64,000 bases of DNA, taken from Bacteroidia bacterium. Lineage in GTDB: Bacteria; Bacteroidota; Bacteroidia; M30B66. Location of the stretch: positions 1,440,001 through 1,504,000 of the forward strand of contig OZ257142.1 in the NCBI GenBank assembly GCA_965279035.1, written 5' to 3'. The translations under genes and the position numbers were made by a program. The notes below the pieces were generated by a model that was given only the letters and a program-made list of their open reading frames with translations, was not told the DNA's origin and did no database searches. Position 1 is the stretch's first letter; each line of letters starts with the position of its first letter. Shown here piece by piece: positions 12,132 through 41,684 of this stretch.

Positions 12132-12175
12132 ATTCTAATGGATGTTGAAATAGTGCTTTTCCCTATCATTGTGCA

Positions 12176-12472: not shown

Positions 12473-12483
12473 ATCTACGTATC

Positions 12484-12627
12484 GCTGGCTTCGACAGGCT
12501 CAGCCAGCGGTTGGTACTATTCTGTTCTAGTCGAATTGTTGGCTGAGCTAGTCGAATTGTTGGCTGAGCTAGTCGAATTGTTGGCTGAGCTAGTCGAATT
12601 GTTGGCTGAGCTAGTCGAAGCCAACGT
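12484..12627. repeat. REP-like element copy 1 with tandemly amplified 21-bp right arm
   Basis: GCTGGCTTCGACAGGCTCAGCCAGC, then 4 exact CTAGTCGAATTGTTGGCTGAG units (12527-12610) and a terminal CTAGTCGAAGCC. Confidence 0.85.
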
Positions 12628-12900
12628 TGGCAGCAAAAATAACTCCTGTCTAATTAATGCTTCTTTTTTTTCTCGCCTCCATTTTTGTACTTGCTTTTCT
12701 CTGTAAAAAGCTTGGTCAATTCTTTCAAATTATTCAATATAAACAATTGAAACCGGTAAGCGATTTTGTGTGTGTTTTGCACCATTTCCAGTCTGGTGTT
12801 CTCGTAAACGTTTTTCAATATTTATAGTGCTTCCCGTGTAATAAGTGCCATCTGAACAAAGCAAAATATACATGAATCCTAAATTGATATTTCTTTTCAT
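12517..12900 (-). pseudogene. GIY-YIG nuclease (YhbQ/UPF0213-like) with in-frame TAA
   Basis: Manual translation: MKRNINLGFMYILLCSDGTYYTGSTINIEKRLREHQTGNGAKHTQNRLPVSIVYIE*FERIDQAFYREKQVQKWRREKKEALI. Stop at 12730-12732; the frame then runs into the repeat (STSSANN)n. Confidence 0.85.
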
Positions 12901-13003
12901 AATTTGTTTAAATAATTTTATAATAACTTTATATACACTAAAATAAGAAAAATATTATTTGCTTGGATTATAGTGGGTTCATAATGTAAAAAATTTATCA
13001 AAG

Positions 13004-13127
13004 GCTGGCTTCGACAGGCTCAGCCAGCGGTTGGTGCTTTTCTGTTCTTGTCGAATTGTTGGCTGTTCTTGTCTAATTGTTGGCTGAGCTTGTCGAATTG
13101 TTGGCTGAGCTTGTCGAAGCCAACGTT
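13004..13127. repeat. REP-like element copy 2 (direct repeat of copy 1)
   Basis: Same GCTGGCTTCGACAGGCTCAGCCAGCGGTTGGT head, followed by ~3 degenerate CTTGTCGAATTGTTGGCTGAG units and GAAGCCAACGTT. Confidence 0.85.
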
Positions 13128-13157
13128 TATTTTCTCTATTTTTATTTAAAATGTAGT

Positions 13158-13748
13158 ATGAAATTCTTTCAATTCATATCGCTAATCACTTATGTTTTTA
13201 TAAGTATATTCACTTCTTGTAAGAAAGATGAAGTAGCAGAATCAGCTGTACATTGTGTGGATCACATTAATTATATAGGGAATTATTTATTAGATTATTC
13301 TTCAGATGATAGTTTAAACTATGCAGCTTATCCAAGTTTTAACCGTGAAAAAATATTTATCCCATCAGCCTTCACACCTAATAATGATAATATCAATGAT
13401 CATTTTATAGCAATAATTAATTTGAAAGAAAGTACAAGTAACTACCAGGCTATTTTAACTATTTATTACCAAGGATTATTTAAACATGGCGAATTTGCAA
13501 GTTTTAAAAATGATTACTTTTTTAATTGGGAGTTTCCAGATGAAGCTTATACCAAGAGATTATATGATGTGTATTTAGTTATCAGTCAAAACGGACAAGA
13601 ATTAAATAATTTTCATATGCAATGTTGGGCGTTGAAACCAGATCAAAATGGGTTCTTGCCTAAGTGGTCAAGCTGCTTAACGTATGATGATCAATTTGAA
13701 TTACGTTATGGTTTAATTTTTCCAACTCAAGAGAAATTCAAACCCTAA
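13158..13748 (+). CDS. Hypothetical lipoprotein with CHU_C/T9SS type-B-like motif
   Basis: Likely start MKFFQF with lipobox FTSC; internal 'IFIPSAFTPNNDNINDHF'. Confidence 0.65.
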   Translation: MKFFQFISLITYVFISIFTSCKKDEVAESAVHCVDHINYIGNYLLDYSSDDSLNYAAYPSFNREKIFIPSAFTPNNDNINDHFIAIINLKESTSNYQAILTIYYQGLFKHGEFASFKNDYFFNWEFPDEAYTKRLYDVYLVISQNGQELNNFHMQCWALKPDQNGFLPKWSSCLTYDDQFELRYGLIFPTQEKFKP

Positions 13749-13806
13749 TTTGACAAATTAATTTAGGGCAATATTCAGGATTAATTCCACAGAAAAATAA
13801 TCGTTC

Positions 13807-14274
13807 TTAATTGTTTTCTTTTTCCAATTCTTTATCACGAAGATTCTTAACATAATCATGATCTTTCTTCAATAATGATAATTGAAGGCTTATGATTTTG
13901 CGTTGAGTAGGAGTTAATTCGTCTGATCGATCTAATAACACACTCCTGTATACTTTTAAAGCCACATCTTCCCCGTATTCACATGAATTTAAAATTGTTT
14001 TACGATCATTTTTCCCTAATGCAACTTTTACATCCATCCAAACTCGAAAAAATTTACCTGAGATTTTAGTTTCATTGGTTGGTGTGCCTTTTAAACGAAG
14101 TATCTCAATCGACAATTCATTTTTACAATTTTCGCTTGTATGAATCATTTTTTGAAAAAGCGCTGATAAATCACTTTCTTTCGTTTCTGATTCAGCTGTT
14201 TTGTATCCTTCCATTCGATCATTGTTTATTTCTACCAATGAATTTAAAACGGCAATTGATTTTTCAGTTTCCAT
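13807..14274 (-). CDS. PA2169 family (DUF2383) four-helix-bundle stress protein
   Basis: 'LNSLVEINNDRMEGY..A...L...F','FFRVWMDVK','ILNSCEYGED.A..VY'. Confidence 0.88.
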   Translation of the reverse strand: METEKSIAVLNSLVEINNDRMEGYKTAESETKESDLSALFQKMIHTSENCKNELSIEILRLKGTPTNETKISGKFFRVWMDVKVALGKNDRKTILNSCEYGEDVALKVYRSVLLDRSDELTPTQRKIISLQLSLLKKDHDYVKNLRDKELEKENN

Positions 14275-14661
14275 AGATGTTTAGTTAGTATTATTTGATT
14301 GATTTGTTTTATTAGTTCAAAATTAGGTCTAGGAATTCGTATTCTTTAATTTTCCCTTGTTCCATCTTTGTGGATTAAATCCCTGTATTAATTTCATTGA
14401 TCCATAGTTAAAGTATGGATACTAGTCAAATTTGTTTGAATTATTCTCGAACAACCATCCTCATTCCTTGCTTCATTTGTATACCATCTGCTTGGCTCAA
14501 AAAAAAATGGTTGAATTGTTAGATTCAACGTGGTCTGGGCTTCGCCTTATTTCATTTATATTTTGACGGTAAATAGTAAAATGGGATAGAATTAGAAAAG
14601 AAAGTTGAATTGCTTCTGCGCGATTTTTATTAAACGGAAATTTATTTCCCCCCAAGGTATT

Positions 14662-14946
14662 TTAGAAAAAATTTAACCAGGAATTCCTCTCAATATTTCG
14701 TTGATTTTCATGCTCATTATTTAAGTCATTTAGCTCGTTTGGTTCCTGATATAACGTATTGGATGATAAAGAATGTGAAGCATTTTGTTGATCGTCTAAA
14801 GGAATTTTATTTTCAGGTTGAAGTACATTCATATAACTAGATTTCGATTTTTGAAATAGAATTATCTCCCTGTTTTTATTTTTTACTGCATAGTGCATGC
14901 TATGCAAATCATTGATTTCAGTTTGTTTTTTTTTCGCATGAATCAT
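14662..14946 (-). CDS. Hypothetical protein
   Basis: 94-aa ORF co-oriented directly after the GT4 fusion; no recognisable motif. Confidence 0.4.
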   Translation of the reverse strand: MIHAKKKQTEINDLHSMHYAVKNKNREIILFQKSKSSYMNVLQPENKIPLDDQQNASHSLSSNTLYQEPNELNDLNNEHENQRNIERNSWLNFF

Positions 14947-14970
14947 GATTTCTATTTTTAGAATTAAAAA

Positions 14971-17379
14971 TTAGTTTGTTACCTTTTTAATTTTCCGCTC
15001 TATAGAATTTCGGAAATCATTTAAACTGTGTTTTTCTTTGTGAAAAGCCGTATCACTCTCTTCTGCAAACGGTTTTTTTCGTAATACATTTTCTATAGAC
15101 AAACGTGCAAGTAAATAACTGATTGTTGATTCAGCACCTTGGTTTAGGTTAATGTTATTTTCTTCTAAACCATCATAACATCCTCCTGTACATGGGTTGT
15201 AAATGATTTGGTGAAGATGATTCTCTCCTAAAAACCAATTAAATGAGCTAATTAATTTTTCTCGATATGAATTATCATCTAAAAATTCATTGAATTTCTC
15301 TAATGCTAGAATTGTATATGCAACATCAATTGGTTGTTCTCCTCCAGCTGTTATATGAATTGTATCAGACTCTTTATGCATCCAGTTTTTATTGGATATT
15401 ACGTGGATTTTGCCATTCTTGAAAATTTTTGAAAGCAGAAAGTCGAAAGATTCACATGCAATTTTTTTGTAATCCTGATTGTGAGTGATTTTCCAAGCAC
15501 AAAGCAAAGCTTCGGGCAAAATACTATTCGCATAGGTTAAATAACTTTCAAACCAGAACCAATTATCATTTGATTCATGTTGATACATTTTAACCAATCG
15601 TTCTGAAAACAATGAAATCAATTCTACTTCATTTTCTGAATAATAAAATCTATTTCTAAAGTATAGTCCTTTTATTATAAATGCCATAGCACGCGTTGAA
15701 TGGATTCCATGAATGTGAGAAATTGCTTTTTTGAAAATCAATTCCGCTTTTTCTATAAGTTCTTCTGGAAATATTGCCTTAAGTGATGTAAAATAGCCCA
15801 ATGCCCATATTGCCCGTCCATTTGAATCAGCTAAGTTTGTTGAGAAATTTTGCGATGTAAATTCTTTGTATTGATCTACATAATTTAAAAAACGACCATT
15901 TTCTTTTTGACAAAACTCAATAAAATCTAAATAGATAGTAATTAGTTTTAAATCTTCTTCTTTTCCAAATAACTCGTATTTCTGACTTATTGCAATCAAT
16001 GCACGTGCATTGTCATCCAAGGTATAGCCTGTTAAAATATCAGGTTGATTTATTTCTGAAAATTGAATAATTCCGAAATCAGTTGTCATTTGTAAAATAT
16101 GACTCAAATTAATTTCTGGAATTGAATATTTTAGTTGAATTGCGTTTGGATCCATGTTTTCAATTAGTCTTGCGTGTTGTATTGCGGAATTTTCCCAAGC
16201 TGTTGGTGCCATTTTGTGAATCCCATTCAATATTATCTTTTTACGAAGTTCTTCATTCTCAATTATTTCATTGAGACATTTTGTTAAAGCTGCTGAATCT
16301 TCAAATCCAAATAGAATTCCTGTACCATCTTTTAATACTTCTACTGCATGTGGAATGGGCGTCGAAATAATAGGACAGCCACTACTTATTGCATAAGAAA
16401 ATGTTCCACTAACGGCTTGATTCGGATCTTTTGATGTAAATAAATAAATATCAGTTAATTGAAGAAAATCAAGCAATTCATTTAATGGCAAAAAGTAATT
16501 TATAAAGCGAACGTGATTTTCTAAATTCAATTCTATTACTAGATCTTCTAATGACTTTCTGTATTTCTCTCCTTCCTGTTTCAAAACAGTCGGATGTGTT
16601 TTTCCTAATATCAGAAATACACTATCCGGATGCTTTTTCACTACCTCTGGAAGTGCCTTCAAAGTGCTTTCAATGCATTTTCCACTACTTATTAATCCAA
16701 AAGTCGATAAGACTATTTTGCCACTTAAATTAGCTTTCAATTTTAAATTCTCTTTATCACGATATTCCACCAAATGAGTGCCGTGAGGTATTATTGTTAT
16801 TAAATTTGGTGAAACTCCATAATCTCTAATTAATATTTCTTGTGAGTATTTTGTCATTACAATGATCGAATCTACCAGATTTGCTATTTCTTGAACATGG
16901 ACTAAATGTTTAGAGTTTGGATTGGGTAGAACAGTGTGAAATACTATAATTACAGGTTTTTTTATGTTTTTTATCAAATCACAAAACTCATTTTCCTTGT
17001 TCTCAAATAGTCCAAATTCATGTTGAATTAGTACCATCGATAATCGCTCATTTTGATTGATTTCTCTTTTGATTTTCAAGTAATCTTCTGGCTGATCTGT
17101 ATTTAATATACTACCAACTCCATTTGGATATGTATGTTTTTCGTTTTTTGATTCAAGTGGACAAATGGTTAATTTAAATGAATCTCCAAATTTCTTTTTG
17201 AGAGCATTTATTAAATCAGTCGTATACGTAGCAATTCCACATTCTCTTGGAGGATATGTACTAATAAATAATACTTCAGGAATTTGATTTAAATAGTGAT
17301 GAACCGATATGCCGTTTCTTAAGCTAGATCTAAATTCATTCATACTACGTAGGGAAAGTTCATTTCTACTTATTTTCAT
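14971..17379 (-). CDS. GT4 glycosyltransferase fused to C-terminal (alpha/alpha)-barrel glycosidase-like domain
   Basis: 'STYPPRECGIATYT','QHEFGLF','QAVSGTFSYA' (GT4); 'GYTLDDNARAL','WFESYLTYANS','GGEQPID','GGCYDGL....NLNQGAES' (C-terminal domain). Confidence 0.88.
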   Translation of the reverse strand: MKISRNELSLRSMNEFRSSLRNGISVHHYLNQIPEVLFISTYPPRECGIATYTTDLINALKKKFGDSFKLTICPLESKNEKHTYPNGVGSILNTDQPEDYLKIKREINQNERLSMVLIQHEFGLFENKENEFCDLIKNIKKPVIIVFHTVLPNPNSKHLVHVQEIANLVDSIIVMTKYSQEILIRDYGVSPNLITIIPHGTHLVEYRDKENLKLKANLSGKIVLSTFGLISSGKCIESTLKALPEVVKKHPDSVFLILGKTHPTVLKQEGEKYRKSLEDLVIELNLENHVRFINYFLPLNELLDFLQLTDIYLFTSKDPNQAVSGTFSYAISSGCPIISTPIPHAVEVLKDGTGILFGFEDSAALTKCLNEIIENEELRKKIILNGIHKMAPTAWENSAIQHARLIENMDPNAIQLKYSIPEINLSHILQMTTDFGIIQFSEINQPDILTGYTLDDNARALIAISQKYELFGKEEDLKLITIYLDFIEFCQKENGRFLNYVDQYKEFTSQNFSTNLADSNGRAIWALGYFTSLKAIFPEELIEKAELIFKKAISHIHGIHSTRAMAFIIKGLYFRNRFYYSENEVELISLFSERLVKMYQHESNDNWFWFESYLTYANSILPEALLCAWKITHNQDYKKIACESFDFLLSKIFKNGKIHVISNKNWMHKESDTIHITAGGEQPIDVAYTILALEKFNEFLDDNSYREKLISSFNWFLGENHLHQIIYNPCTGGCYDGLEENNINLNQGAESTISYLLARLSIENVLRKKPFAEESDTAFHKEKHSLNDFRNSIERKIKKVTN

Positions 17380-18412
17380 TGCTAACTGTATTAGATAGTA
17401 ATTCTTTTATTAATCCTGATAAACTCACTGATGCGCATGCAATTTGCTCATCAGCTGCCCCGTAATAAATGTAAAGGCTATCTTCGAAAATGGCTGTTCC
17501 CGTTGGAAAACAAACATTATTGACAACGCCCGTTAATTCCCATTGTTGATCAGGATAAAAAAGCGGATAAGGTAAGCGAGCAATTTCTTTTTGAGGATCT
17601 TCTAAATCAAGTAAAGCGGCACAACTGGTATACATATACCCATTAATTGTATCATGAACTCCATGATATATTAACAACCATCCACTTTCTGTTTCAATTG
17701 GTGGACAACCACCACCTATATAACTTACTTCATGTTTGTATTTTGGGGATAATACGATGAATTTGTGTAAGTGTAGAAAATAGTTTTGCCAAAATTCGGT
17801 TGTAAGTTCTTCAAATGAATGAAAACTAACAATTTGAATATCTGGTCTTACTCGATGTAAAAAATGAATTTTATCGTTTATCTTTCTTGGAAATAAAATT
17901 ACATTCTTATCCCATATTAATACTTTTTTCCCATTTATTTCTTGCACTTTATTGTGTTCATTATATCGCAAGTATTTCTCATTCAATGTACCTTTTGATT
18001 CAGCTAAATGACTGAATTCTTGATAGGTAATTTGTGGGACAATAATTCCCTTTTTTTCAAAATGAATTAAATCTGTAGATGTTGCTAATGCACCCATTGC
18101 ATTTACTCCATCGTAAGCTGTATAGGTTAAATAATAGATTCCTTCAATGCATACTATTCTCGGATCTTCTGTTCCTTTTGATTCATAGTCAAATTGGGGG
18201 AAAATTAACGGAGTATCGAGACGTTCTATTACCTGCAATGGCCCAGATAGTTTACAAAATCCAATGCTCGAATAATTACCCTTACTTACAGCTCTATAAA
18301 ACAGATATACTTCGCCTTCAACTTTGATAATTGCTGGATTCAGAACGCCCTCATTTTCAAAACCATTTCCAGTTTTTACTAATATAACACCTTCTTTCTT
18401 TACTTCAATCAT
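17366..18412 (-). CDS. GH130 family glycoside phosphorylase/mannosidase
   Basis: 'GVLNPA','GTEDPR','YYLTYTAYDG','KNVILFP','HRVRP','GWLLIYHG','NVCFPTG','YYGAAD'. Overlaps the GT4 gene. Confidence 0.9.
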   Translation of the reverse strand: MIEVKKEGVILVKTGNGFENEGVLNPAIIKVEGEVYLFYRAVSKGNYSSIGFCKLSGPLQVIERLDTPLIFPQFDYESKGTEDPRIVCIEGIYYLTYTAYDGVNAMGALATSTDLIHFEKKGIIVPQITYQEFSHLAESKGTLNEKYLRYNEHNKVQEINGKKVLIWDKNVILFPRKINDKIHFLHRVRPDIQIVSFHSFEELTTEFWQNYFLHLHKFIVLSPKYKHEVSYIGGGCPPIETESGWLLIYHGVHDTINGYMYTSCAALLDLEDPQKEIARLPYPLFYPDQQWELTGVVNNVCFPTGTAIFEDSLYIYYGAADEQIACASVSLSGLIKELLSNTVSNENK

Positions 18413-18900
18413 GGCCTTGTTTTGTATATGAATAATGCAATTACTCCCATTGAAATGAATGTTAAAATAAAAATGGCAATGTATCTACTCACTCCAAATT
18501 CTTCCACTAAAATTCTTAATGGATATCCTATTGTTGAGTACATTACTGAAAGGAGCGTTTTCCTTCCATTCTTACTTTTTATTATATATTCATCAGCACC
18601 ATGCTGAAATGCTTCAATTGATGCTGCAACGTGCTCGTTTGAAGTAAACATTATTACTTCTGTATTTGGATTAATTTCTTTTATTTTTCCAATGACTTCA
18701 TTCCCTTTATTCCCTTCTAAATAAACATCCATTATCACTATTTCAGTACTATTGTTGATGTTTTTTAATGCCTCTTGACTACTGAAATATTTAGAAATCG
18801 CAATCGTATTATTGAATTTATTTTTAAGAAAAAGTTCTAATTCAGAAGCCATCTTTAAATTATCATCAATAATGAAAACATTCGTAAATACTGGATTCAT
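18409..18900 (-). CDS. Response-regulator receiver with C-terminal TM helix
   Basis: 'IIDD..','IVIMDVYL','MFTS','EYIIK'; hydrophobic C-terminus. Confidence 0.82.
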   Translation of the reverse strand: MNPVFTNVFIIDDNLKMASELELFLKNKFNNTIAISKYFSSQEALKNINNSTEIVIMDVYLEGNKGNEVIGKIKEINPNTEVIMFTSNEHVAASIEAFQHGADEYIIKSKNGRKTLLSVMYSTIGYPLRILVEEFGVSRYIAIFILTFISMGVIALFIYKTRP

Positions 18901-18951
18901 GGTTTCTCGTATTGAAATGATTGAAAATATTTGTTAATTGAATTTGAAAGC

Positions 18952-19182
18952 TTAAACTTTTGAATTAGGCACTTGAATATGACTTAATTCATATTTATTC
19001 ATTAATTCATTCAGTGAATTCAAATATTCTTCAAGTGATTTATCTTGAATTTCTCCTTCTTTATATCTACTTGAATTTAGTGGCATTTCACCTATGTATA
19101 TTGAAAGCTCAGGAAATCGTTTTGTTATTTCCTGGGTTTTTTCTAAAATCTTCTTCATTAAAAATTCACTGGATTTAGTCAT
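18952..19182 (-). CDS. Small hypothetical protein (Bacteroidota stress-cluster type)
   Basis: 'I...FPELS.YI.EMP........LEEYLNSL..L..KY' pattern; co-oriented in the cluster. Confidence 0.7.
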   Translation of the reverse strand: MTKSSEFLMKKILEKTQEITKRFPELSIYIGEMPLNSSRYKEGEIQDKSLEEYLNSLNELMNKYELSHIQVPNSKV

Positions 19183-19203
19183 TCTATTTATGTTGTCTTG
19201 GAT

Positions 19204-19899
19204 TTACATTTTTTCACAAATCAGAATGCATTTTTCTACATGATCTAAATGCATTTTTAGTGTAAGAAGTGTTGTTTGAGCCCATATCTTAATTTCAATA
19301 TTGGATGTTTCTTTTATTTCCTTTTCAAATGAGTTTATAGCTTCTTTATGTCCAAGAGCCATCATTTCACAATAAGCCATGTCAAATGCTTTTCCTGAAT
19401 TCTTATTTAATTTTTCAAATGATGCAATTGCTTTATCACTAGCAGCTGACGGAACTATGATATTATTCTTTTGAGCAATTTCTGTCAGAGAATTCAAGGT
19501 GTTTCCATGCTCTAATACGAGCATTTGTGCTAATTCTCTTACTTCTTTAGTTTGAGTTTTCTGTTCTGCTAAATCACCCAGGCGCATTTCTTCCAAGCTT
19601 ATTTCAGCAGCATTTATTAAAAATTTTGAATCTACTTCGTTTATTGATTTAACTGGTGATTTTTCATCTCCCGAAACTGTATTTTCATTCGATTTTTGTA
19701 CATTATTACATGCACTTAGTATGATTAATCCAATTAAGAAGAGGAATGAATATTTTTCTTTTCTTAATTTATTTCCTAAAAATGCTGACCTCGAGTTTTT
19801 AATTTTAGGAGATGGAATTGAAATTAATTCATTTTCCTTTTTTTGATTTAATTTCAAATAGTTTTCAATCTCTTGAATGAAATTATTAATCGTTATCAT
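19204..19899 (-). CDS. DUF4142 family ferritin-like (lipo)protein
   Basis: 'DSKFLINAAEISLEEMRLG.LA','AFDMAYC.MM...HKEAI..FE','L..HL'; lipobox-like ILSAC. Start uncertain. Confidence 0.85.
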   Translation of the reverse strand: MITINNFIQEIENYLKLNQKKENELISIPSPKIKNSRSAFLGNKLRKEKYSFLFLIGLIILSACNNVQKSNENTVSGDEKSPVKSINEVDSKFLINAAEISLEEMRLGDLAEQKTQTKEVRELAQMLVLEHGNTLNSLTEIAQKNNIIVPSAASDKAIASFEKLNKNSGKAFDMAYCEMMALGHKEAINSFEKEIKETSNIEIKIWAQTTLLTLKMHLDHVEKCILICEKM

Positions 19900-20010
19900 A
19901 TTGAAACTTGTTCGTAAATGAATTATTACGATTCAAATTTCCTTCTATATATCTTATTATCTATTACATAAAAAGAGTACTTAATTACACTATTCTTAGG
20001 AACGAATTCG

Positions 20011-20445
20011 CTACATTCTATCTTTATACCAAGATAATATATTCTCCATTTTTTTAAAACGTGAAATCGAGTTAATGATTTTCTGAATTCTTAAAAACGC
20101 TGTTTCACTCTTTACAACATAATCAAATGCTCTGTGATGCATACATTCTATTGCAACTTCTATTTTGTCTTGAGACGATAACATAATTACAGGTATATCT
20201 GGATTATATTCCTTTATCTTATCTAATACCTGAATTCCATTCATGGCAAAGCGATCTAAACCATCTAAGTGATAGTCTAGAATGATAATATCAGGTGTTA
20301 AATTAAGTTCAACTAAACACAATTCACCTGTCTCAAATGTCTTGATTTCATATTCATTATGAAGTCTGAAATCATTTTCAAGTAGTTTTAGATAAATTGA
20401 ATCATCATCAACTAGGAATATTAATACCTTTTTCTCCGTATTCAT
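20011..20445 (-). CDS. Single-domain response regulator
   Basis: 'LVDDD','PDIIILDYHL','MLSS','DYVVK'. Confidence 0.9.
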   Translation of the reverse strand: MNTEKKVLIFLVDDDSIYLKLLENDFRLHNEYEIKTFETGELCLVELNLTPDIIILDYHLDGLDRFAMNGIQVLDKIKEYNPDIPVIMLSSQDKIEVAIECMHHRAFDYVVKSETAFLRIQKIINSISRFKKMENILSWYKDRM

Positions 20446-22441
20446 TTTTAAATTTTAATTGTTTAATTTCCTCTTGTAATTCAATGCAAGATTGTTCACA
20501 GGTTTTTTCTATTAATTCAATTAAATCATGAATTCCATCATCCTGTTGTCGACTTCTTGCGAATTCTTGAATCTGTCTTGCCACATTCTCAATTTCTTTA
20601 TTAATTCCCATGATTGAAAAAGATGGAATCATTTTATGAACAGCCATTTGAAGGGATTTCCAATCTTCCTCCTTCAAACTTTTTTTCATTGCATTAATTA
20701 AAACCGGCGTCTGTTCCAAGTAAAGAGATATTATCTCTTTCATTAATATTGGATCTGATTTAGTTCTTTGATGTAAAAATTCAAGATTAATTAATTTTAG
20801 GGGTTTTAATATCACTTTGTCAAGCTCAAATATGTTCTTATTTATTTGACTTTTAGGATGAACTAACCCTATCATTTTCGAATACAAAATCCGTTCATCA
20901 ACCGGCTTTGCTATATAATCATTCATTCCTGCCGCTTTGCATTTTTGTATGTCAACGGTTGTCACATCAGCAGTTAATGCAATAATGGGGGTTTTTAGTT
21001 TCAATTTTTTTCTTATCACATTCGTAGCTTCAAAACCATTCATTTCTGGCATTTGAAGATCCATTAAGATAATATCATAATTATTTTTGTTTTTAAGCAT
21101 TTCTATTGCTACCTTTCCATTTTCAGCAATATCATAATCAAACCCAAAATCATCTAATAATGTTTTCATTAAAAGCTGATTAAGTTTAATATCTTCTACA
21201 ACTAAAATTCTAATATTCTTAATTTCACTATTATATTCTGGACCTTCTACTTCCAATTCAGGAAGTTCTATTGTTTTCTTAAAATTTAACTTGAAACTAA
21301 AAGTTGAACCATGTTTTAGCTTACTTGTTAGATGAATAGTTCCTTTCTGTGATTCAATTAACTGTTTCACTATTGCTAAGCCTAATCCAGTGCCTCCATA
21401 TATTCGAGAGGTTCCATTTGTTGCTTGTTGGAAATTTTCAAATATTTTTAGTTTTTTATCCTCAGGTATTCCGATTCCTGTATCTGACACTGAAAATAGT
21501 ACTGTTATAGTTTCATTTGTTTCTTCAACAAGTTTTAATTTAACAGTTATTGATCCTTCTTGTGTAAATTTTATTGCATTACTCAATAAATTCAGCATAA
21601 TTTGATTGAGTCGCATAGCATCCCCCAATACTATTTCTGGTATATATGAATCATATTTTTCATGTAACACCAAATTCTTTTCTTGAATTTTATTTTCAAA
21701 TAATTGCAAATTCATTTTAATTCCTTGAACTAAACGAAATGGCTTTTCCTCAAATACCATATTTCCAGAATCAACTTTTGCTAAATCAAGAATATCATTG
21801 ATTAAAACAACCATTGAATCTCCACTTGTTTTAATTGCATTCAAGTATTCTTTCTGTTTTGCACTAATTTCTGTCTTTAATATAACTTTTGTAAATCCGA
21901 TAATGGCATTCATAGGAGTCCTAATTTCATGACTCATATTCGATAAAAATTGTTGCTTTGACTTGAGGGCCTCTTCAGCTATTTTCATTGATTTCTCAGC
22001 CTTTTCACGTGCCTTCTCGGCCATTGTTTTTGCTTCTTCGGCCTTAATATTTGCATTCATTAATTCTCGTTCAATTCGCTTTTGTTCGGTTACATCTCTT
22101 GCTACCACAACTGCTCCAAGTGCATTCCCTTCTTCATCTTTATATAAAGATCCATTAAACAACACATCGGTCAGTTTCCCATCTCGAATTGTGAGAGGAT
22201 AATTCTTCACAAATCCTTTTAGAAATATTTTCTGATATACTTCCCGAGCTCTTTCTGGTTCAGTGAAATAATCATAAAAATGTGTACCAATTAATTCCTT
22301 TTTTGATACACCAGTTATGGTCGACATCGCTTCATTCGTATCCGTAATTTCTCCTGCAGAACTAATTGTGATTAGTGGGTCAAGACTGGCTTCAATCAAG
22401 CTTCGGGCATAATTCGATGTATACTGTTTTATTTTTATCAT
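20408..22441 (-). CDS. PAS hybrid sensor histidine kinase (PAS-HisKA-HATPase-REC-Hpt)
   Basis: 'FLSNMSHEIRTPMN','NLLSNAIKFT','DTGIGI','GGTGLGL','ILMDLQMP', Hpt-like 'AVHKMIPS'. Confidence 0.93.
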   Translation of the reverse strand: MIKIKQYTSNYARSLIEASLDPLITISSAGEITDTNEAMSTITGVSKKELIGTHFYDYFTEPERAREVYQKIFLKGFVKNYPLTIRDGKLTDVLFNGSLYKDEEGNALGAVVVARDVTEQKRIERELMNANIKAEEAKTMAEKAREKAEKSMKIAEEALKSKQQFLSNMSHEIRTPMNAIIGFTKVILKTEISAKQKEYLNAIKTSGDSMVVLINDILDLAKVDSGNMVFEEKPFRLVQGIKMNLQLFENKIQEKNLVLHEKYDSYIPEIVLGDAMRLNQIMLNLLSNAIKFTQEGSITVKLKLVEETNETITVLFSVSDTGIGIPEDKKLKIFENFQQATNGTSRIYGGTGLGLAIVKQLIESQKGTIHLTSKLKHGSTFSFKLNFKKTIELPELEVEGPEYNSEIKNIRILVVEDIKLNQLLMKTLLDDFGFDYDIAENGKVAIEMLKNKNNYDIILMDLQMPEMNGFEATNVIRKKLKLKTPIIALTADVTTVDIQKCKAAGMNDYIAKPVDERILYSKMIGLVHPKSQINKNIFELDKVILKPLKLINLEFLHQRTKSDPILMKEIISLYLEQTPVLINAMKKSLKEEDWKSLQMAVHKMIPSFSIMGINKEIENVARQIQEFARSRQQDDGIHDLIELIEKTCEQSCIELQEEIKQLKFKNEYGEKGINIPS

Positions 22442-23025
22442 TTCAATAAAATAGAATTCATTTCACCAATTTCTTCAATCGGACTCCTTCTTTTATCTTT
22501 TAGTTTTTTAAAGTGTGTTGGTGATAAACCTGTTGCTTTCTTGAATTGATTTGATAAATGCGCAACACTGCTATAATGCATCTTCCATGCTATTTCTGTT
22601 ATATTTAATTCATCATAAATAATTAATTCTTTAATCCTCTCTATTTTATTGGATATAATATATTGTTCTATTGTACTCCCTTGAACTTCTGAAAATAAAT
22701 TGGCTAAATAGGTATAATCATAATTTAATTTACTACTTAAATACTCTGAAAAATTAACCTTAATCCTCTCATCTGTATAATGAACCATTTCAATAATTGA
22801 ATTTTTAATTTTTTCGATCAATACTGACTTTTTATCATCCATTAACTCAAGACCTGATTTGAGTAATTCAGCTTTTAATTGCATTCGTGTTTCCTTATCA
22901 ATCTCCTCCATTATTTCTATTTCACCTAAGTCAACAACAACAAAATGAAGATCAAGCTTTTTAAGCTCCTCCTTCACCATCATCTTGCAACGATTACTAA
23001 CCATGTATTTTATATATAGCTTCAA
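22438..23025 (-). CDS. AraC family transcriptional regulator with N-terminal metal-binding-like segment
   Basis: 'YIKYMVSNRCKMMV'; C-terminal 'ITEIAWKMHYSSVAHLSNQFKKATGLSP'. 4-bp overlap with the kinase. Confidence 0.9.
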   Translation of the reverse strand: MKLYIKYMVSNRCKMMVKEELKKLDLHFVVVDLGEIEIMEEIDKETRMQLKAELLKSGLELMDDKKSVLIEKIKNSIIEMVHYTDERIKVNFSEYLSSKLNYDYTYLANLFSEVQGSTIEQYIISNKIERIKELIIYDELNITEIAWKMHYSSVAHLSNQFKKATGLSPTHFKKLKDKRRSPIEEIGEMNSILLK

Positions 23026-23287
23026 TGGAGTATATTTTTAACATTCAAATTTGATCACTAATGTTCACCTGAACCTTATGGTTTGAATTCAATTCTTTGC
23101 ATAATTCACACATTCAGATTTTGTTATAATTTACACATAATTACTATCTAAAATACATCCTACTATATTCAACTCAATTATTCTTATGCTCATATACACT
23201 AAGATACAAGACAAAGATTTTCATTTCAACCTGCAATGGTTTGGCTTTTTTGTCATTTCTTTTACTTTTACCACTTACCCAATTTCT

Positions 23288-26200
23288 ATGTTCAAACGTT
23301 CCCTTACATTTTTATCTCTTTTCATTTCATTTACAATTTCCGCCCAAAAAAAGCCTAACTCAAAATCTGAAACTAAGCCCGATTGGGATGTAAATATTCC
23401 TATTGGTCCAACCAAAAGTGTTTCGTTTGACCTCGATGAAGGAACTTGGATGAATTTAGATGTGAGTCCTGATGGGAAATCCATCGTCTTTGACTTGCTA
23501 GGTGATATCTATTCAATGCCCAGTTCAGGCGGAAAGGCACAATGCTTACGTGCTGGTTTAGCCTATGAAGTTCAGCCACGCTTTAGTCCTGATGGCAAGT
23601 TTATTTCTTTTACCAGTGATGCTGGTGGTGGTGATAATATTTGGATTATGAATTCAGATGGTACGAATTCTCGTCAAGTTACAAAAGAAGACTTTCGATT
23701 ATTGAATAATGCCGTTTGGACTCCTGACGGAAAATACCTCATCGCAAGGAAGCATTTTACTAGTACCCGTTCAGCTGGTGCTGGTGAATTATGGATGTAT
23801 CATATTTCGGGTGGAAGTGGAATTCAACTAACTCAAAAGAAAAATGATCAACAAGATTTAGGAGAACCATTCGTATCAACAGATAATCGTTATGTGTACT
23901 ATAGCGAGGATGTTTATCCAGGTGGATATTTTCAATACAACAAGGATCCCAATTCCCAGATTTATGTCATCAAACGACTGGATCGGAAAACAGGAACAAA
24001 CGATATTGTTGTTCGTGGTCCGGGTGGTGCTGTGCGTCCTACTTTATCGCATGATGGGAAACACATTGCTTTTGTAAGAAGAGTTCGTGAAAAAACAGTT
24101 CTCTTTATTCGTGAACTTTCAAGTGGTATTGAAAAACCGGTTTATACAGAGTTAAGCAAGGATCAACAAGAAGCATGGGCTATTTTTGGAGTCTATTCTA
24201 ATTTCAATTGGTCGCCCGATGATCAAGCTATTTATATTTGGGCTAAAGGGAAAATTCGGAAAATAGCTGTTTCCTCTGGACAATCAGAAGTAGTACCTTT
24301 CCAAGTTACCAGTTCACATAAAATATCAGAAGCACTCCATTTTCAACAAGAGGCAGCACCTGATTCTTTTGATGTAAAAACAATCCGACAGGCAATCACT
24401 TCTCCCGATAATAAATACATCGTATTTAATGCTGTTGGATATCTCTGGAAAAAAGACCTTCCATCTGGTAAACCAACACGTTTAACAAAATCTGAGAATT
24501 TTGAATTTGAACCAACATTCTCACCCGATGGGAAATCGCTTGCTTTTGTTAGTTGGAGCGATACTTCACTTGGAGCAATATGTGTTTTCGATATCAACAA
24601 TAGAACTGTCAAATCGGTTACGAAAGAAAAAGGAATTTATAGAACACCTTCATTTTCGCCCGATGCAAGCAAATTGGTTTACCTCAAAGAGGAAGGAAAT
24701 GATCATCAGGGCTTCTCTTATTGCAATGAACCTGGTATTTATATTTTGTCATTGAAGGACTTTTCCACAAGTAAAATCCAAATTGATGGTGAAAATCCTC
24801 GTTTTAGTGCTGACGGAAAACGAATCTTTTTTCAAACTGGAGGTTACCTTTTTGGTGCATTAGATAAAGCGTTTAAGAGTGTTGACTTGAATGGATTTGA
24901 TGAAAAAACGCACTATACTTCAACCTATGCAAATCTCTTTGTGCCAAGTCCCGACAACCAATGGTTAGCATTTACAGAATTATTTAAAGTGTATATCACC
25001 CCATTAATTCAAACAGGGAAGGCACTTAGCTTGAGCAATGGAACTGATTCGTATCCATTAAAAATGGTTTCGGAAGAGGCTGGAATTAATTTGCATTGGA
25101 CTGCAACAACGAATCAATTGCATTGGACGTTGGGGGATACATATTATAGTACAGATGTAAAATACTGGTTAGACTTAAACCAAGGAGTTGAAGCACCAAA
25201 GCCAGTAAGTTCAGGTTTGAAAGTGGGTCTTCGTTTAGCTCATGATAAACCACTTGGTTCAGTTGCATATATCAATGCACGAATTATTACCATGAAGGAT
25301 AGTTCTTCCATTATTGAAAATGGGACGATACTTACAAAAGGAAATCGCATTGTTCAAATTGGATTAAACGATGCTGTCTCTATTCCTATCGATGCTCAAG
25401 TGGTGAACTGTTCTGGCAAAACAATAATGCCAGGAATTATTGACGTGCATGCTCATCTTGGAACATTTCGCTATGGCTTGAGTCCGCAACAACAATGGTC
25501 ATATTTTGCCAATTTAGCTTTTGGTGTTACTACCACGCATGATCCATCCTCGAATACCGAAATGGTATTTTCACAAAGTGAGATGGTGAAAGCAGGCATC
25601 ATGACCGGTCCACGGATTTTTTCTACTGGTATTATTTTATATGGAGCTGATGGCGATTTCAAAGCGCAAATTAATAAGTTGGATGATGCTCGATTTGCAT
25701 TAAAACGTACCAAAGCTTTTGGAGCATTTAGTGTAAAAAGTTACAATCAACCACGTCGTAACCAACGCCAACAAGTAATTGCAGCAGCCAGAGAATTGCA
25801 AATGGAAGTGGTGCCTGAAGGTGGATCACATTTCTTTCATAATATGAGTATGATACTCGATGGTCATACGGGTATTGAGCATAACATACCTGTTGCGGAT
25901 ATATACAATGACGTAGTGAAACTTTGGAGCAATTCTAAAACGGGTTACACTCCAACATTGATTGTTAGTTATGGAGCAATTAATGGGGAATATTATTACT
26001 ATCAAAAAGATAAAATTTGGGAAAACGCACGTCTTCTCAATTTTACTCCAAGGGCTTTAGTCGATCCACGTTCACGTTATCGTACGGCAGTACCGGATGA
26101 AGAATATTACAATGGACACATGTTAATTGCTCGTTCTTGCAAAAAGCTAGTTGATGCAGGTGTTCGCGTTAATTTGGGTGCACACGGACAAATTCAAGGC

Positions 26201-37782: not shown

Positions 37783-39228
37783 TTAATCATTTATAATGAT
37801 TGTCTTATGGCTTGTAATTGCTGAATTGTTATTACTCCAAACTATATGATACAATCCAGAATGCGATAAAATATCTCGTTCAATGTTGAATTGTTTTGAA
37901 TAGACATTCATCGAATGAATACATTTTCCAGTTAGGTCGTAAATGCGAAGTATTCCATTATTAGTGGGTAATTGAATCTGTATGTTTCCATTACTTGGAT
38001 TAGGATAAACACGCCATGCTTGATCTATATTTTCAATTCCTAAAATAGTTCCTGGATTCAGGTTAACATGAAAGGTATCGGTGAAAAAGCAGGTATCGGC
38101 ATTGGATGGAAATAGGTTGGTAATGTCGAGTTTAAAATCGAGCATGGTGTTTTCAGGAATAGCTTGAGTAACATGAAAGAAAAAGCTGGCTTCAACTACC
38201 GAATCGGGATTCCAAGCGGAAGCAAAAACCTGAAATCCGCTACTGTTTAAGCCGAAATCCATACCTGCCGGAAATGCCGACAATGGGGTGATTCGAGCGA
38301 GCGGATAGGCGAATCCTAATCCAGAAGTATTCGTTAAATTAAACCTCAAAACAGAATCACCAAACGATGAAATGGTACCTTCGAATATAGCTTGATCAGC
38401 AGCATTTGTGAGTGGTAAAAGCGAACAAGCTACATTTTGTATGGCTGGAAATCCTAAGAAATTAACCGTATTATTTCCTGAATTTGGAATAGCGAGTGTA
38501 TCAGAAATTTGATTGTAGTAGATATCTGCCGGGCTCGACATACCAGTAGCTATAGTGATGGGTGCATTGAGAAAATTGCGATCGTATTTTACGATTTTTT
38601 GTCCTGTCCATGCTGATATATACCAAGTATCGAGACCGTTCCAAGCAAGACCATCACAGTTTCCAAGAGTTGTTGAAGCAATTGTTGTTACTACAGAATC
38701 GGCAAGAGATAGAGCTTTGATGGGAGCATTCGTTCCCCAATTGACAAATACTAAACGGTTATGGGCTTGGTCGTAAACGATTCCGTTTGGACTTTGCACA
38801 AGATTTTGAGCCATCACATTGGAAGAACTTGTACTGGTGTTAATTCGGTAGATTTTTTTACCAGTAAAATCGGTGGCGAAGAGATTAACATATCCATCGC
38901 TGGTGATTCCATTGAGAAAAGTTGCACCTGTGTTTAGATTGAATGTTTGAGTTCCGTCTGTTAAGTCGTAGCCTTTGATGTATCCACTACAGCAAGCATA
39001 AACTGTATTTCCTACGATTTCGATTCCATAAGGAACAGGACTAATTCCCGATTTAAAAACCGATAACACACCACTTGCCGAACGAGCGAGAATGGTTCCG
39101 CTCCCGGTGTTTGAAATTAAATAACGGTTGTTGCCTGCATCAAATGCAATGCTTTCGGGACCGTTGTATGTTTGAGCTTGGATGAAATTTGAGCACAGAA
39201 TTGCAATTAGTAGTAAACAATTTTTCAT
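37783..39228 (-). CDS. T9SS-secreted beta-propeller protein (SMP-30/gluconolactonase/NHL-like)
   Basis: Blades 'GPESIAFD','PYGIEI','LNGITSD','PNGIVYD','CDGLAW','PADIYY'; CTD 'VYPNPSNG...IYDLTGK...SGLY'. Confidence 0.8.
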   Translation of the reverse strand: MKNCLLLIAILCSNFIQAQTYNGPESIAFDAGNNRYLISNTGSGTILARSASGVLSVFKSGISPVPYGIEIVGNTVYACCSGYIKGYDLTDGTQTFNLNTGATFLNGITSDGYVNLFATDFTGKKIYRINTSTSSSNVMAQNLVQSPNGIVYDQAHNRLVFVNWGTNAPIKALSLADSVVTTIASTTLGNCDGLAWNGLDTWYISAWTGQKIVKYDRNFLNAPITIATGMSSPADIYYNQISDTLAIPNSGNNTVNFLGFPAIQNVACSLLPLTNAADQAIFEGTISSFGDSVLRFNLTNTSGLGFAYPLARITPLSAFPAGMDFGLNSSGFQVFASAWNPDSVVEASFFFHVTQAIPENTMLDFKLDITNLFPSNADTCFFTDTFHVNLNPGTILGIENIDQAWRVYPNPSNGNIQIQLPTNNGILRIYDLTGKCIHSMNVYSKQFNIERDILSHSGLYHIVWSNNNSAITSHKTIIIND

Positions 39229-39284: not shown

Positions 39285-39313
39285 AAAAACCCGGAATGTT
39301 GGTTCCGGGTTTT
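39285..39313 (-). terminator. Hairpin between monooxygenase and propeller genes
   Basis: AAAAAACCCGGAA-tgttgg-TTCCGGGTTTT. Confidence 0.6.
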
Positions 39314-39323
39314 CAAATGTGAA

Positions 39324-40964
39324 TTAATGCTGAACAATGAGTTTTTGAGTGTATGTTCCTGTATTGCTGCACAAACGTATAATATAAACACCACTTTTAT
39401 TGGGAGTTTGACACTGGAGAGCATTTTTCCCGACAGGTAAATTCTCTGTATTTGTTTGTTGAATGATTCTTCCTGAAATATCCCAAATACTAATTTGTAC
39501 ATCGGAAGCTTTTTCTAACTCGAATGTCAAATTGAATATTCCATTTGCTGGATTGGGGTTGATTGAAGCGAAATTCGTTTCTAAATTCTCATTACCCAAA
39601 ATAACTTCCCCCAATGTGTATTGAATATAATAGAGTTTCATTTCATCATTGGTCGTCAATCCAAAATGAACTGAAGTTGTTCCTGTATTTCTGAATGTGG
39701 CTTCTTGTATCAAACCGAGTTTTGGATTGATGGGTTCCAATGGTTCAAATTGACGAACGGGTGGATGAGAAAAACTGTAATATCCTTGATTGAACGTATA
39801 ATCGGTATTATACCAGCCTTCGTAAATCTGATCACCTTTGGTTCCATTTGAATTTCGTTTGAAAATATCGAAATCAACCCCGTATTTGTGAGTATGAGAT
39901 GTCAATTGCCAAATATTCCAATACTGAGTGGCTGATACATCATAATCGGCTTGAGAAAATGTATGAGGTGTATTGTCGGCTGGAATTAATATGTTGAGGT
40001 CGGTAATTAAATCCGAATGCATTTCGATGATCTCATCAGTTGCTGGTAATGTGTAAACATTAATAAAGACTTCAGAAGCCAAAACAGAATCGACATTGTA
40101 GTTTTTTAGATGGAAATTCATATCGAGCACACTTCCAGTTGGCCATATATACGCTGTTCCTTGAGGTAAATGAGTATCGAACGACATCTGCCAAGCATTG
40201 ATCATCGTGGATGAACTTCCTGAAGAACCAACTCCGGTTAAAGGATTCTGTAATCGTAATCCTTCGGCAAATGAAGCATCTTGTCCGGGAAGAAATTTAT
40301 AGAGAATGAAGTGATGACTTTGAGGAGCCATGATCATTTCGAGACGGTTAACCTTAATATTTGCAGGAAGTTCAAGATCGTATTTGATAAAGTATTCGGC
40401 TTCTGATTGTGGTGCTAAGAATATTTTCCCTAAGTGTAATTGAAATGATCCCGTTTCTGTAGGAATTGGTGGAGCACTAGGAATGCTATTGATTCCTCCA
40501 TTGGTATAATACTCATCGATAATTGCTGTGTTTACAACATTTCCAGTTAAAGGAGCTCCTTTATAAATCCATTGTCGAATCAATTCTAAACTTTGTTGTG
40601 GAACTGCTGGTCCTGGACCACCATAATTGGGCATACCAGCACCTTCGTCAACAGTAAGCATTTCGTTAGGGTAGAGTCCATTATTGCATTTACGCATAAG
40701 AAAGCTTCGGTCGGGATAACCAGGACGAATGAGTTTATACCCTTTCGCAATTGCTGCAGGATTTGTTGGACTTACATTCACAATGCGATTGTATACTTCT
40801 GTGTCTGTTCCACTCAAATTCAAATTCCCGGAATTATCCACTCCATTGTGACAACCAATAGCACAGGTACTTTGGAAAAAAGTATTGATTTGAGAGAATG
40901 TGTTTTGGGCTTGAATGCTATTCGAGACAAAAAGCACGATTAAGGAAAGGAGTGTGTTTTTCAT
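39324..40964 (-). CDS. T9SS-secreted cytochrome c + copper type II (PHM/DBH-like) monooxygenase fusion
   Basis: N-terminal CAIGCH (CxxxCH)...PGYPDRSFL...MP...LIRQWIYKGAP (Planctomycete-type cytochrome c); Cu ligands SHHF, NFH, SHTHKYG, DEM; CTD 'INPNPANG..IWDISGR..SGVYII'. Confidence 0.8.
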   Translation of the reverse strand: MKNTLLSLIVLFVSNSIQAQNTFSQINTFFQSTCAIGCHNGVDNSGNLNLSGTDTEVYNRIVNVSPTNPAAIAKGYKLIRPGYPDRSFLMRKCNNGLYPNEMLTVDEGAGMPNYGGPGPAVPQQSLELIRQWIYKGAPLTGNVVNTAIIDEYYTNGGINSIPSAPPIPTETGSFQLHLGKIFLAPQSEAEYFIKYDLELPANIKVNRLEMIMAPQSHHFILYKFLPGQDASFAEGLRLQNPLTGVGSSGSSSTMINAWQMSFDTHLPQGTAYIWPTGSVLDMNFHLKNYNVDSVLASEVFINVYTLPATDEIIEMHSDLITDLNILIPADNTPHTFSQADYDVSATQYWNIWQLTSHTHKYGVDFDIFKRNSNGTKGDQIYEGWYNTDYTFNQGYYSFSHPPVRQFEPLEPINPKLGLIQEATFRNTGTTSVHFGLTTNDEMKLYYIQYTLGEVILGNENLETNFASINPNPANGIFNLTFELEKASDVQISIWDISGRIIQQTNTENLPVGKNALQCQTPNKSGVYIIRLCSNTGTYTQKLIVQH

Positions 40965-40973: not shown

Positions 40974-41684
40974 TTAATCGTATGATTCGAACCGGATTTG
41001 TTTTTTGTCTAGTACAAATGCTTGTAAATGTTCTCGGGCTTCTTTGAGCATGTTTGCCCATCCACAAAGATAGAAGAGATGATCACCTGGAAGAAGAAAT
41101 ATTTCTTTATACACATCATGAACATAACCTGATCGTCCTGACCATTGTTCTCGGGATAAAACGGGTATGTAATTGAAACTTGCTTTTTCTTCTTGAAGCT
41201 TCAGAAATTCCTGGTGATACAGTAAATCTCTTTGACTGCGTACACCTGCAATGAGTGTAATTTCATGATGCGGTTTCTCTTGTTGGAAAATGTCGAGTAT
41301 CATCGATCGAAAGGGAGCAATACCAGTACCTGTGCAAATAAAACATAATCGACGGTTTAGGTTTTCATCAAGCCTAAATTTACCTAAAGGAAGGGTTGTT
41401 TTAATTTTCGAACCAATCGAAATATCTCGAAATAAGTGCGGTGTTCCCAACCCTTGAGGATTCATTACAATGATGAGTTCTAAGGTATTGTCGCTCGATG
41501 GGGGAGAGGCAATGGAATAACTTCGGTTGGTGTATTTGCTGTCGATAGGTAAATCTAACATTACAAACTGACCTGCATGAAAATCTAGCATAACTTCACT
41601 AGGATAGCGAAGCACAAAGCGTTTCACATCTGGAGTTTCATCCAAAATCTGAATTACTTCGCAGTCATAATAGGTATATGCCAT
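40974..41684 (-). CDS. FNR-family FAD/NAD(P)H oxidoreductase
   Basis: 'FHAGQFVML','RSYSIAS','GTGIAPFRSM','YLCGW','FESY'. Confidence 0.9.
   Translation of the reverse strand: MAYTYYDCEVIQILDETPDVKRFVLRYPSEVMLDFHAGQFVMLDLPIDSKYTNRSYSIASPPSSDNTLELIIVMNPQGLGTPHLFRDISIGSKIKTTLPLGKFRLDENLNRRLCFICTGTGIAPFRSMILDIFQQEKPHHEITLIAGVRSQRDLLYHQEFLKLQEEKASFNYIPVLSREQWSGRSGYVHDVYKEIFLLPGDHLFYLCGWANMLKEAREHLQAFVLDKKQIRFESYD

Follow-up and report, generated by a model that had tools for sequence, protein, structure and literature searches.

A putatively haem-tethered protein with the fold and probable copper ligands of PHM and DBH, predicted as type IX secretion cargo in a Bacteroidia bacterium

The gene at positions 39324-40964 of a 64,000-nucleotide stretch of DNA from a Bacteroidia bacterium (contig OZ257142.1 of assembly GCA_965279035.1; the whole stretch is called the window here) encodes a 546-amino-acid protein that is well supported as a four-part fusion, in which a signal peptide is followed by a c-type cytochrome domain, a core with the fold of peptidylglycine alpha-hydroxylating monooxygenase (PHM) and dopamine beta-hydroxylase (DBH), and a type IX secretion system (T9SS) C-terminal sorting domain (CTD). 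It would be a bacterial, T9SS-type, haem-tethered version of a known kind of PHM/DBH-fold two-copper enzyme. We hold, with moderate confidence, that the protein works outside the cell as an O2-dependent monooxygenase with two coppers, and that electrons enter it through its own haem.

PHM, DBH and tyramine beta-hydroxylase (TBH) are textbook eukaryotic enzymes, familiar from the amidation of peptide hormones and from noradrenaline, and they depend on ascorbate. There is still debate over the reduction of the two coppers, which lie far apart, and over the way in which they communicate. If our reading is true, the protein would be a natural version of these enzymes in which a covalently attached one-electron donor is docked at CuH, and so a self-contained system in which to study copper electron transfer. 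It would also extend the PHM/DBH/TBH family into bacteria, bring a haem-copper oxygenase among the cargos of type IX secretion, and indicate that environmental Bacteroidota have an oxidative activity outside the cell that depends on O2. The family to which the protein belongs is large (255 clusters at E<=1e-30) and is uncharacterised in the literature that we searched.

The starting point was an earlier reading of the DNA by a model, which we call the original prediction. The open reading frame (ORF) and every motif that it had named were found in place when the DNA was re-read, and its four-part architecture was borne out by a PHM/DBH fold, a match to PHM at four of six ligands, a c-type cytochrome domain and a T9SS CTD. 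It had also remarked that it knew of no enzyme of this kind that has been characterised. Our searches of the full-text literature, supplements being outside their reach, agree with this: they returned no paper on a bacterial fusion of cytochrome c and PHM. In the passages of PMC12164859 that use the term, 'PHM-like' refers to DBH subdomains only, and the main text of PMC9084895 gave no passage with the motif terms.

Results and Discussion

The core has the fold of PHM and DBH

We modelled the protein with AlphaFold2, using 32 relatives (pLDDT 84, pTM 0.72). A Foldseek comparison with rat PHM had been proposed as a check on the original prediction, and it returned the expected fold: the top matches of the model were rat PHM entries and human DBH only (1sdw, E 5.1e-13, TM-score 0.60 by target). 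Superposition with VIA-align placed model residues 161-474 on PHM (6ala_C, Z 22.8, root-mean-square deviation (rmsd) 2.7 A over 262 residues) and gave a similar result for human DBH (4zel_A, Z 21.4, rmsd 2.6 A over 265 residues). Outside PHM and DBH, nothing matched the core better than a PNGase, at Z 9.3.

The likeness is more distant at the level of sequence. When the whole protein or a whole-length profile was searched against the sequences of the PDB, only T9SS CTDs were retrieved and PHM was not. A profile of the core alone, made from 41 sequences, had PHM as its best PDB match (E 0.037), and in its alignment H285 falls on PHM H172, H357 and H359 on H242 and H244, and M442 on M314; the PHM residue numbers are the chain index plus 44, which is consistent with the chain ranges of the structural alignment. 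The pair H217/H218 lies 56-57 residues into the structural match, while the PHM pair, which we take to be numbered 107/108, lies 62-63 residues in, and this placement is by spacing only. Of the complete two-copper ligand set that had been predicted, H285, H357, H359 and M442 are thus placed by alignment, while H217 and H218 are candidates placed by spacing. Among the 32 relatives, 29 matched Cu2_monoox_C (PF03712) at E<=1, and three relatives exceeded its gathering score (23.5-26.3 bits).

Conservation was followed in 102 family copies, one of them the target and the other 101 being ORFs of 80 related loci, with fragments among them. Every copy that covers the site in question keeps the candidate ligands: H217 and H218 in 101/101, H285, H357 and H359 in 102/102, and M442 in 101/101. 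Identity to the target falls to about 37-40% within this set, and the conservation of the motifs is far beyond chance. These data bear on the idea that the protein is a non-catalytic surface adhesin or binding module that has reused a beta-sandwich of the PHM or PNGase F-like type. Many T9SS cargos are adhesins and the fold class is common to PNGases, as the match at Z 9.3 illustrates, but six metal ligands and a haem motif that stay invariant down to about 37% identity are not expected of a scaffold, and we give this idea hardly any weight.

Two other features of the core are conserved. M315 is nearly invariant (99/102 copies), and so is H400-P401, with H400 a His in 91 of the 102 copies. Before H400-P401 stands a loop of some 13 residues, modelled with low confidence (388-400; window about 39765-39803), for which the PHM spacing has no counterpart.

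The peptide-anchoring residues of PHM are replaced

In PHM, R240 and N316 hold the C-terminal carboxylate and the backbone of the peptide, and we take Y318 to belong with them to the set of residues that anchors peptidylglycine. The equivalent of R240 is position 355, which is Ser in 48 copies, Thr in 27, Gln in 14 and another residue in 13, and never Arg; that of N316 is position 444, where Asn does not occur in any copy and the residue is Leu, Ile, Val, Gly or Ala. Position 446, equivalent to Y318, is Phe in 49 copies and Tyr in 40. We therefore class it as a divergent two-copper protein of the PHM/DBH fold and not as a peptide-amidating enzyme. Its substrate is probably something other than a peptide with a C-terminal glycine, and the glycine-extended peptides that had been suggested as test substrates are unlikely to serve.

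The same residues tell against a more literal comparison, in which the gene would encode a true bacterial peptidylglycine alpha-hydroxylating enzyme and the next gene downstream (37783-39228), which encodes a T9SS-secreted six-bladed propeller of the NHL type, would supply a lyase analogous to PAL, the two making up a split amidating system. PHM is indeed the top fold match, PAL has the same broad beta-propeller fold class as the downstream protein, and secreted genes of peptidase families flank the cluster. Beyond the absence of Arg and Asn at the anchor positions, PAL is missing from the 44 PDB sequence matches of the propeller, which are headed by designed propellers ('Pizza') and by the sensor domain of PknD. 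There is a single His in propeller residues 1-270, so that no three-His zinc site can be formed there. The propeller adjoins a family gene in only 3/80 loci, all of them from close relatives, and a terminator-like hairpin separates the two genes (three such sites were observed in the region, with 4.6 expected by shuffling). A split amidating system is thus very unlikely, and a PAL-like role for the propeller is not supported. The side-by-side arrangement of a PHM-like gene and an NHL propeller nevertheless recalls the PHM-PAL pair of animal PAM.

The N-terminal domain resembles c-type cytochromes

The original prediction had described a c-type cytochrome domain with an atypical haem motif; the motif is confirmed, and the domain is supported by several tests. 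The motif CAIGCH is of the form CX3CH; C34, C38 and H39 are kept in all 100 family copies that cover the site, and the 87 N-domain copies found in the 80 loci have C(X2-4)CH without exception, 23 as CX2CH, 45 as CX3CH and 19 as CX4CH. A profile of the domain retrieved 14 PDB sequences, all of them c-type cytochromes (E 0.07-2.1), and in the profile alignment CAIGCH and M111 are in register with the haem motif of cytochrome c6 and with its 'AMP' Met. The distal MP of the prediction is M111-P112, and M111 is probably the sixth ligand of the haem. The position is occupied by Met in 91 of 100 covering copies, by Cys in 5, by Glu in 2 and by Ala in 2.

Family profiles gave related but weaker matches. 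The NCBIfam dihaem cytochrome c model TIGR03806 matched residues 24-134 with E 1.6e-5, a score far below its cut-off, and among the 32 relatives PSCyt1 was matched at E<=1 in 11 (best E 0.0048) and Cytochrome_CBB3 in 12 (best 0.0023). The isolated domain was modelled with a pLDDT of 90.7. Foldseek found no match to it at E<=0.001, its weaker matches being haem c proteins in every case. A wide VIA search identified FoxE (5mab_A) as the closest structure, at Z 7.6 and rmsd 3.3 A over 95 residues with 24% identity; the second-best match had Z 4.2.

Might the domain carry no haem? Its Cys pair would then form a disulfide or bind a metal, and the core with its coppers would draw on a small diffusible reductant, as its eukaryotic relatives do. 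The CX3CH spacing in place of CXXCH, the cytochrome family matches that all lie below curated cut-offs, and the existence of one haem-less relative (P0194) could be read in this way. The following His would, however, be superfluous for a disulfide; a fixed Cys...Cys-His with variable spacing, canonical in 23 of the 87 copies, fits a haem c attachment site and not a disulfide. The domain profile matches only c-type cytochromes, with motif and distal Met in register, and cytochrome c maturation genes occur in the genomes of all five relatives searched. According to passages of PMC11024163, mass spectrometry of MmcA has shown that haem is bound covalently to its CXXXCH and CXXXXCH motifs. We regard a haem-free domain as quite improbable.

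Two paralogues have a His after the substituted M111 position (...AAAH... and ...PAAH...). From their sequences, the swaps at M111 suggest subclades with His/Cys or bis-His haems, which would have very different potentials.

The haem domain is predicted to pack on the CuH subdomain

The core profile was searched against a library of 1.84 billion proteins. In the best 150 of its 1183 matches the core almost always starts at residue 150-190, therefore leaving room for an N-terminal domain. In addition, haem was included in a test in which the two domains were given as individual chains and folded together, in three runs and with three controls. The two parts docked with an ipSAE of 0.83 (runs 0.79, 0.83 and 0.83) against 0.00 for the best control; the runs agreed in at least 80% of contacts, and partner pLDDT was at least 89. 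In calibration, the mark for this test was reached by 58/80 solved complexes and by 2/110 mismatched pairs.

All contacts on the side of the core fall within residues 165-300, in the CuH subdomain, and include 211-215, the strand before H217/H218, and 288-298, just past H285. Among the residues at the predicted interface, G179, N288 and S293 of the core (ligands apart) and P81, G82, E127, R130, Q131, G136 and A137 of the haem domain are invariant or nearly so. The models support a haem domain that is held in a fixed docking beside CuH.

Secretion and maturation

The N-terminal 20 residues resemble a signal peptide, and the CTD passes both curated cut-offs, as the original prediction of a T9SS CTD implies: PF18962 scored 47.1 bits (cut-off 27, E 3.1e-12) and TIGR04183 49.6 bits (cut-off 23, E 2.8e-13). 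Its structural matches lie at Z 9.7-10.8, led by the mirolase CTD (8qb1_A, Z 10.8, rmsd 2.2 A over 76 residues). These sequence features point to secretion of the protein through the T9SS. Proteins of the cytochrome c assembly family Cytochrom_C_asm, and GldM, were each present in 5/5 genomes of relatives.

A model for electron flow, and what speaks against it

These observations can be drawn together in the following model. The metalloenzyme would be exported by Sec and then secreted by the T9SS. One haem c would be bound at C34 and C38, with H39 and probably M111 as its axial ligands, and the cytochrome domain would be packed rigidly on the CuH-bearing half of the PHM/DBH-fold core. The core would hold two separate coppers, CuH (H217, H218 and H285) and CuM (H357, H359 and M442); by analogy with PHM and DBH, O2 would be activated at CuM and a C-H bond of the bound substrate hydroxylated. 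The fused haem, and not ascorbate bound at CuH, would supply the two electrons needed for each turnover, which would pass one at a time to CuH and on to CuM. An external donor would then re-reduce the haem, the candidates being a surface or periplasmic cytochrome, Fe(II) and reduced organic compounds. The loading with metal and haem, the direction of electron flow, the monooxygenase chemistry and the extracellular location are all things that we infer. The relay from haem to CuH appears to be the best-supported mechanism. The original prediction had gone further in saying that the fused haem replaces ascorbate: the predicted docking on the CuH subdomain, with many invariant non-ligand residues in its interface, lends the relay indirect support, but the replacement was overstated because a haem relay itself needs an upstream reductant.

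Several observations weigh against this reading. The expected profile matches were obtained for the T9SS type A CTD but not for the other parts: Cu2_monoox_C matched residues 350-450 below its cut-off (E 0.048, 13.6 bits, cut-off 23), Cu2_monooxygen (PF01082) had no match in the 546-residue protein or, at E<=1, in any of the 32 relatives, and PSCyt1 had none in the protein in the Pfam profile search. A profile of the N-terminal subdomain did not reach PHM among PDB sequences, and H217/H218 are accordingly not aligned to PHM by sequence. The candidate axial Met M111 is replaced in 9/100 covering copies. The docking calibration applies only roughly to two domains of one chain, with linker ends and a haem that rides along. 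Eleven of the shorter core-profile matches were inspected, and ten were N-terminally truncated fragments; the other, P0194, is a genuine haem-less form in which a signal peptide is followed directly by the core, so that the core may not depend strictly on the haem domain. No conserved redox partner was found, the commonest neighbour family being present in 17/80 loci, and the FNR-type reductase gene that lies upstream of the target (Table 1) adjoins a family gene in only 4/80 related loci, all of them from close relatives. The evidence on Ccm and T9SS genes comes from the genomes of five relatives (G001-G005).

The haem and the coppers could also be real and serve another purpose, that of an extracellular oxidase or electron sink which hydroxylates no substrate. 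Electrons from Fe(II) or from a surface cytochrome would then reduce O2 to H2O2 or water, or the protein would oxidise Fe(II) and the electrons would leave through the coppers. The best structural relative of the haem domain is an Fe(II)-oxidising cytochrome, none of the substrate-binding residues of PHM is kept, and no substrate-related neighbour is conserved. FoxE is, however, alike at the level of the fold only (Z 7.6), and the CuH and CuM ligand sets are complete and invariant, including the Met that is typical of O2-activating CuM sites. To our knowledge, coupled hydroxylation, as carried out by PHM, DBH and TBH, is the only chemistry of the PHM fold with these ligands. An oxidase of this kind seems unlikely to us, and a monooxygenase fed through its own haem remains the reading that we prefer.

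Comparison with known systems

The target has the same two-beta-sandwich fold as PHM (1PHM, 1OPM, 1SDW, 6ALA) and, with the HH pair placed by spacing, the same HH...H and HxH...M pattern, and it presumably shares the uncoupled two-copper O2 chemistry of that enzyme. It differs in being bacterial and of the T9SS type, with a fused N-terminal haem c domain and an identity of about 14-17%; it has neither the R240/N316 anchors nor a PAL partner, and it carries the insertion of about 13 residues at 388-400. DBH (4ZEL) and its DOMON-containing relatives have the same catalytic fold and, like the target, an extra domain N-terminal to the copper core. In DBH the extra domain is a DOMON beta-sandwich, of a type that in other proteins binds haem b; in the target it is alpha-helical and belongs with the c-type cytochromes. 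The target also lacks the dimerisation domain of DBH, is prokaryotic and, to judge from its sequence, is probably extracellular.

FoxE (5MAB), the best match to the haem domain, has the motifs PG.P..S and W.L.GAP in common with it. Passages of PMC10654088 describe FoxE as a dihaem cytochrome with His/Met-ligated haems. It is a periplasmic, stand-alone Fe(II) oxidase of phototrophic iron oxidisers, with two haems where the target would have one in a domain fused to a copper enzyme. The likeness is modest and is uninformative on the electron donor.

The T9SS type A cargos mirolase (CTD 8QB1) and NucA (CTD 8GLK) have the same C-terminal beta-sandwich sorting domain as the target. In a 2023 review of T9SS effectors (PMC10202324), a keyword search of the main text found none of the terms cytochrome, copper, oxidoreductase and monooxygenase; as far as that text goes, a haem-copper redox enzyme is therefore an unusual class of cargo.

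A parallel in concept is the fungal pairing of cellobiose dehydrogenase (CDH) with lytic polysaccharide monooxygenases (LPMOs), to which the secreted redox partners of bacterial LPMOs can be added: there a haem domain gives single electrons to a secreted copper oxygenase, as would happen in the target. The cytochrome domain of CDH feeds LPMOs with electrons that originate in its fused flavin domain, and the copper site of LPMOs is a mononuclear histidine brace. The target has a different fold and copper site and no fused flavin source, so that the parallel is one of function and not of membership. LPMO was rejected as an identity for the protein itself, which has no N-terminal His brace (its mature N-terminus would be Gln or Asn, and no His comes before H39 of the haem motif) and whose fold is PHM-like.

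A bolder proposal can be built on this parallel, although we hold it only tentatively and think it doubtful as a whole. The protein would be a bacterial, ascorbate-independent counterpart of CDH-LPMO on a PHM scaffold: a two-copper C-H hydroxylase, at the cell surface or released, whose FoxE-like haem takes single electrons directly from its surroundings, from Fe(II) or reduced humics, or else from other T9SS-exported cytochromes, and which oxidises recalcitrant organic matter outside the cell, for example polymers, aromatics derived from lignin, or peptides that carry modifications. If this were true, it would represent a previously unrecognised oxidative arm of extracellular degradation in Bacteroidota.

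Breadth of the family and its variants

Among 8000 scored candidates, 436 were homologues at E<=1e-3, mostly of about 550 amino acids. Species-representative genomes gave 263 pattern matches, 232 of them relatives, and the 80 that were kept are all from metagenome-assembled genomes labelled Bacteroidota. At 50% identity the core-profile matches form 1183 clusters at E<=1e-3, 576 at 1e-10 and 255 at 1e-30. In an even sample of the phylum, 17/301 genomes carry relatives at E<=1e-10, most of these being open frames of about 445-485 amino acids. Public records call these proteins 'hypothetical' or 'T9SS type A sorting domain-containing protein', with 'mono/diheme cytochrome c family protein' in a single case, and some Atlas clusters have been named copper type II monooxygenase automatically. 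Longer fusions that might hint at a substrate-binding module numbered only 2 among 1052 candidates, both with spacers of the PKD/Ig type.

There is a sister subfamily of about 460 amino acids. The two members that were read (L081:960-2354 and L083:939-2309, both on the minus strand) are again fusions of a cytochrome with a PHM-like core; they carry a lipoprotein signal, in which acidic residues come after a Cys, and lack a CTD. Their N-terminal domain matches weakly the region of fatty acid cis/trans isomerase (PF06934) that holds the haem.

Paralogues occur in tandem arrays (101 copies in the 80 loci). Locus L059 has four copies of the N-terminal domain, at 3914, 5936, 7945 and 9795, and further arrays are found at L053, L049, L071, L064 and L048. 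Genome G172 has four copies of the family and each of G001-G005 has one.

Gene organisation and neighbourhood

The features of the gene and of its immediate surroundings are collected in Table 1.

Table 1. Coordinates in the window of the parts of the 546-residue protein and of adjoining features.
Feature	Position	Strand	Basis
Whole gene, 546-aa precursor, ATG start	39324-40964	-	ORF list
Sec signal peptide, residues 1-20, MKNTLLSLIVLFVSNSIQAQ, likely cleavage after IQA or AQ	40905-40964	-	read from sequence
c-type cytochrome domain (FoxE / PSCyt1 / cytochrome c6-like), residues 21-160	40485-40904	-	
Haem c attachment motif CAIGCH (CX3CH): C34, C38, H39	40848-40865	-	re-read from DNA
M111-P112, candidate distal (sixth) haem ligand	40629-40634	-	alignment with cytochrome c6 'AMP' Met
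WIYKGA motif	40554-40571	-	re-read from DNA
PHM-like N-terminal beta-sandwich (CuH subdomain), residues 165-320	40005-40472	-	fold match to PHM, DBH
H217-H218, candidate CuH ligands	40311-40316	-	placed by position only
H285, candidate CuH ligand	40110-40112	-	aligned to PHM H172
PHM-like C-terminal beta-sandwich (CuM subdomain), residues 321-460	39585-40004	-	Cu2_monoox_C match
H357-T-H359, candidate CuM ligands	39888-39896	-	aligned to PHM H242/H244
D440-E441-M442	39639-39647	-	M442 (39639-39641) aligned to PHM M314
T9SS type A C-terminal sorting domain, residues 468-546	39327-39563	-	PF18962, TIGR04183, structure
Terminator-like hairpin, 12-bp stem then T run, 10 bp past stop	39285-39314	-	consensus match
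FNR-type FAD/NAD(P)H reductase without signal peptide, 9 bp upstream	40974-41684	-	PF00970, PF00175
T9SS-secreted NHL-type six-bladed beta-propeller, downstream gene	37783-39228	-	profile and PDB sequence matches

From the gap of 9 bp, the reductase and the target may be co-transcribed; as a cytoplasmic protein, the reductase is unable to reach the secreted haem directly. A gene for an alpha/beta hydrolase also lies downstream of the target, and one for a secreted S9 peptidase further upstream; the peptidase is found in 3/80 related loci, all of them from close relatives.

Neighbours were clustered from 737 ORFs of the 80 related loci. The commonest, in 17/80 loci, is a lipoprotein with an HMA domain (GMxCxxGC) that resembles copper chaperones. 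It has an unusual CX3C motif and is encoded divergently upstream of the family gene, for example at L029:5335-5739 on the minus strand. In one subclade it may serve in the periplasm as a dedicated donor of copper. A redoxin/thioredoxin-like neighbour occurs in 4/80 loci and one of the PF06491 disulphide-isomerase family in 5/80. The 64-kb window contains neither of these two, and an HMA protein and a paralogue of the target are likewise absent from it.

Elsewhere in the window, the plus-strand segment 27775-35215 encodes a SulP-family transporter, an unassigned 443-amino-acid ORF, DabA (PF10070, E 2.7e-222) and a Proton_antipo_M protein that is DabB-like, an apparent cluster for the uptake of inorganic carbon just upstream of a U32 peptidase. 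Positions 12000-24000 have a G+C content of 0.29-0.34, compared with about 0.38-0.43 elsewhere, together with a negative AT skew and several ORFs on the minus strand.

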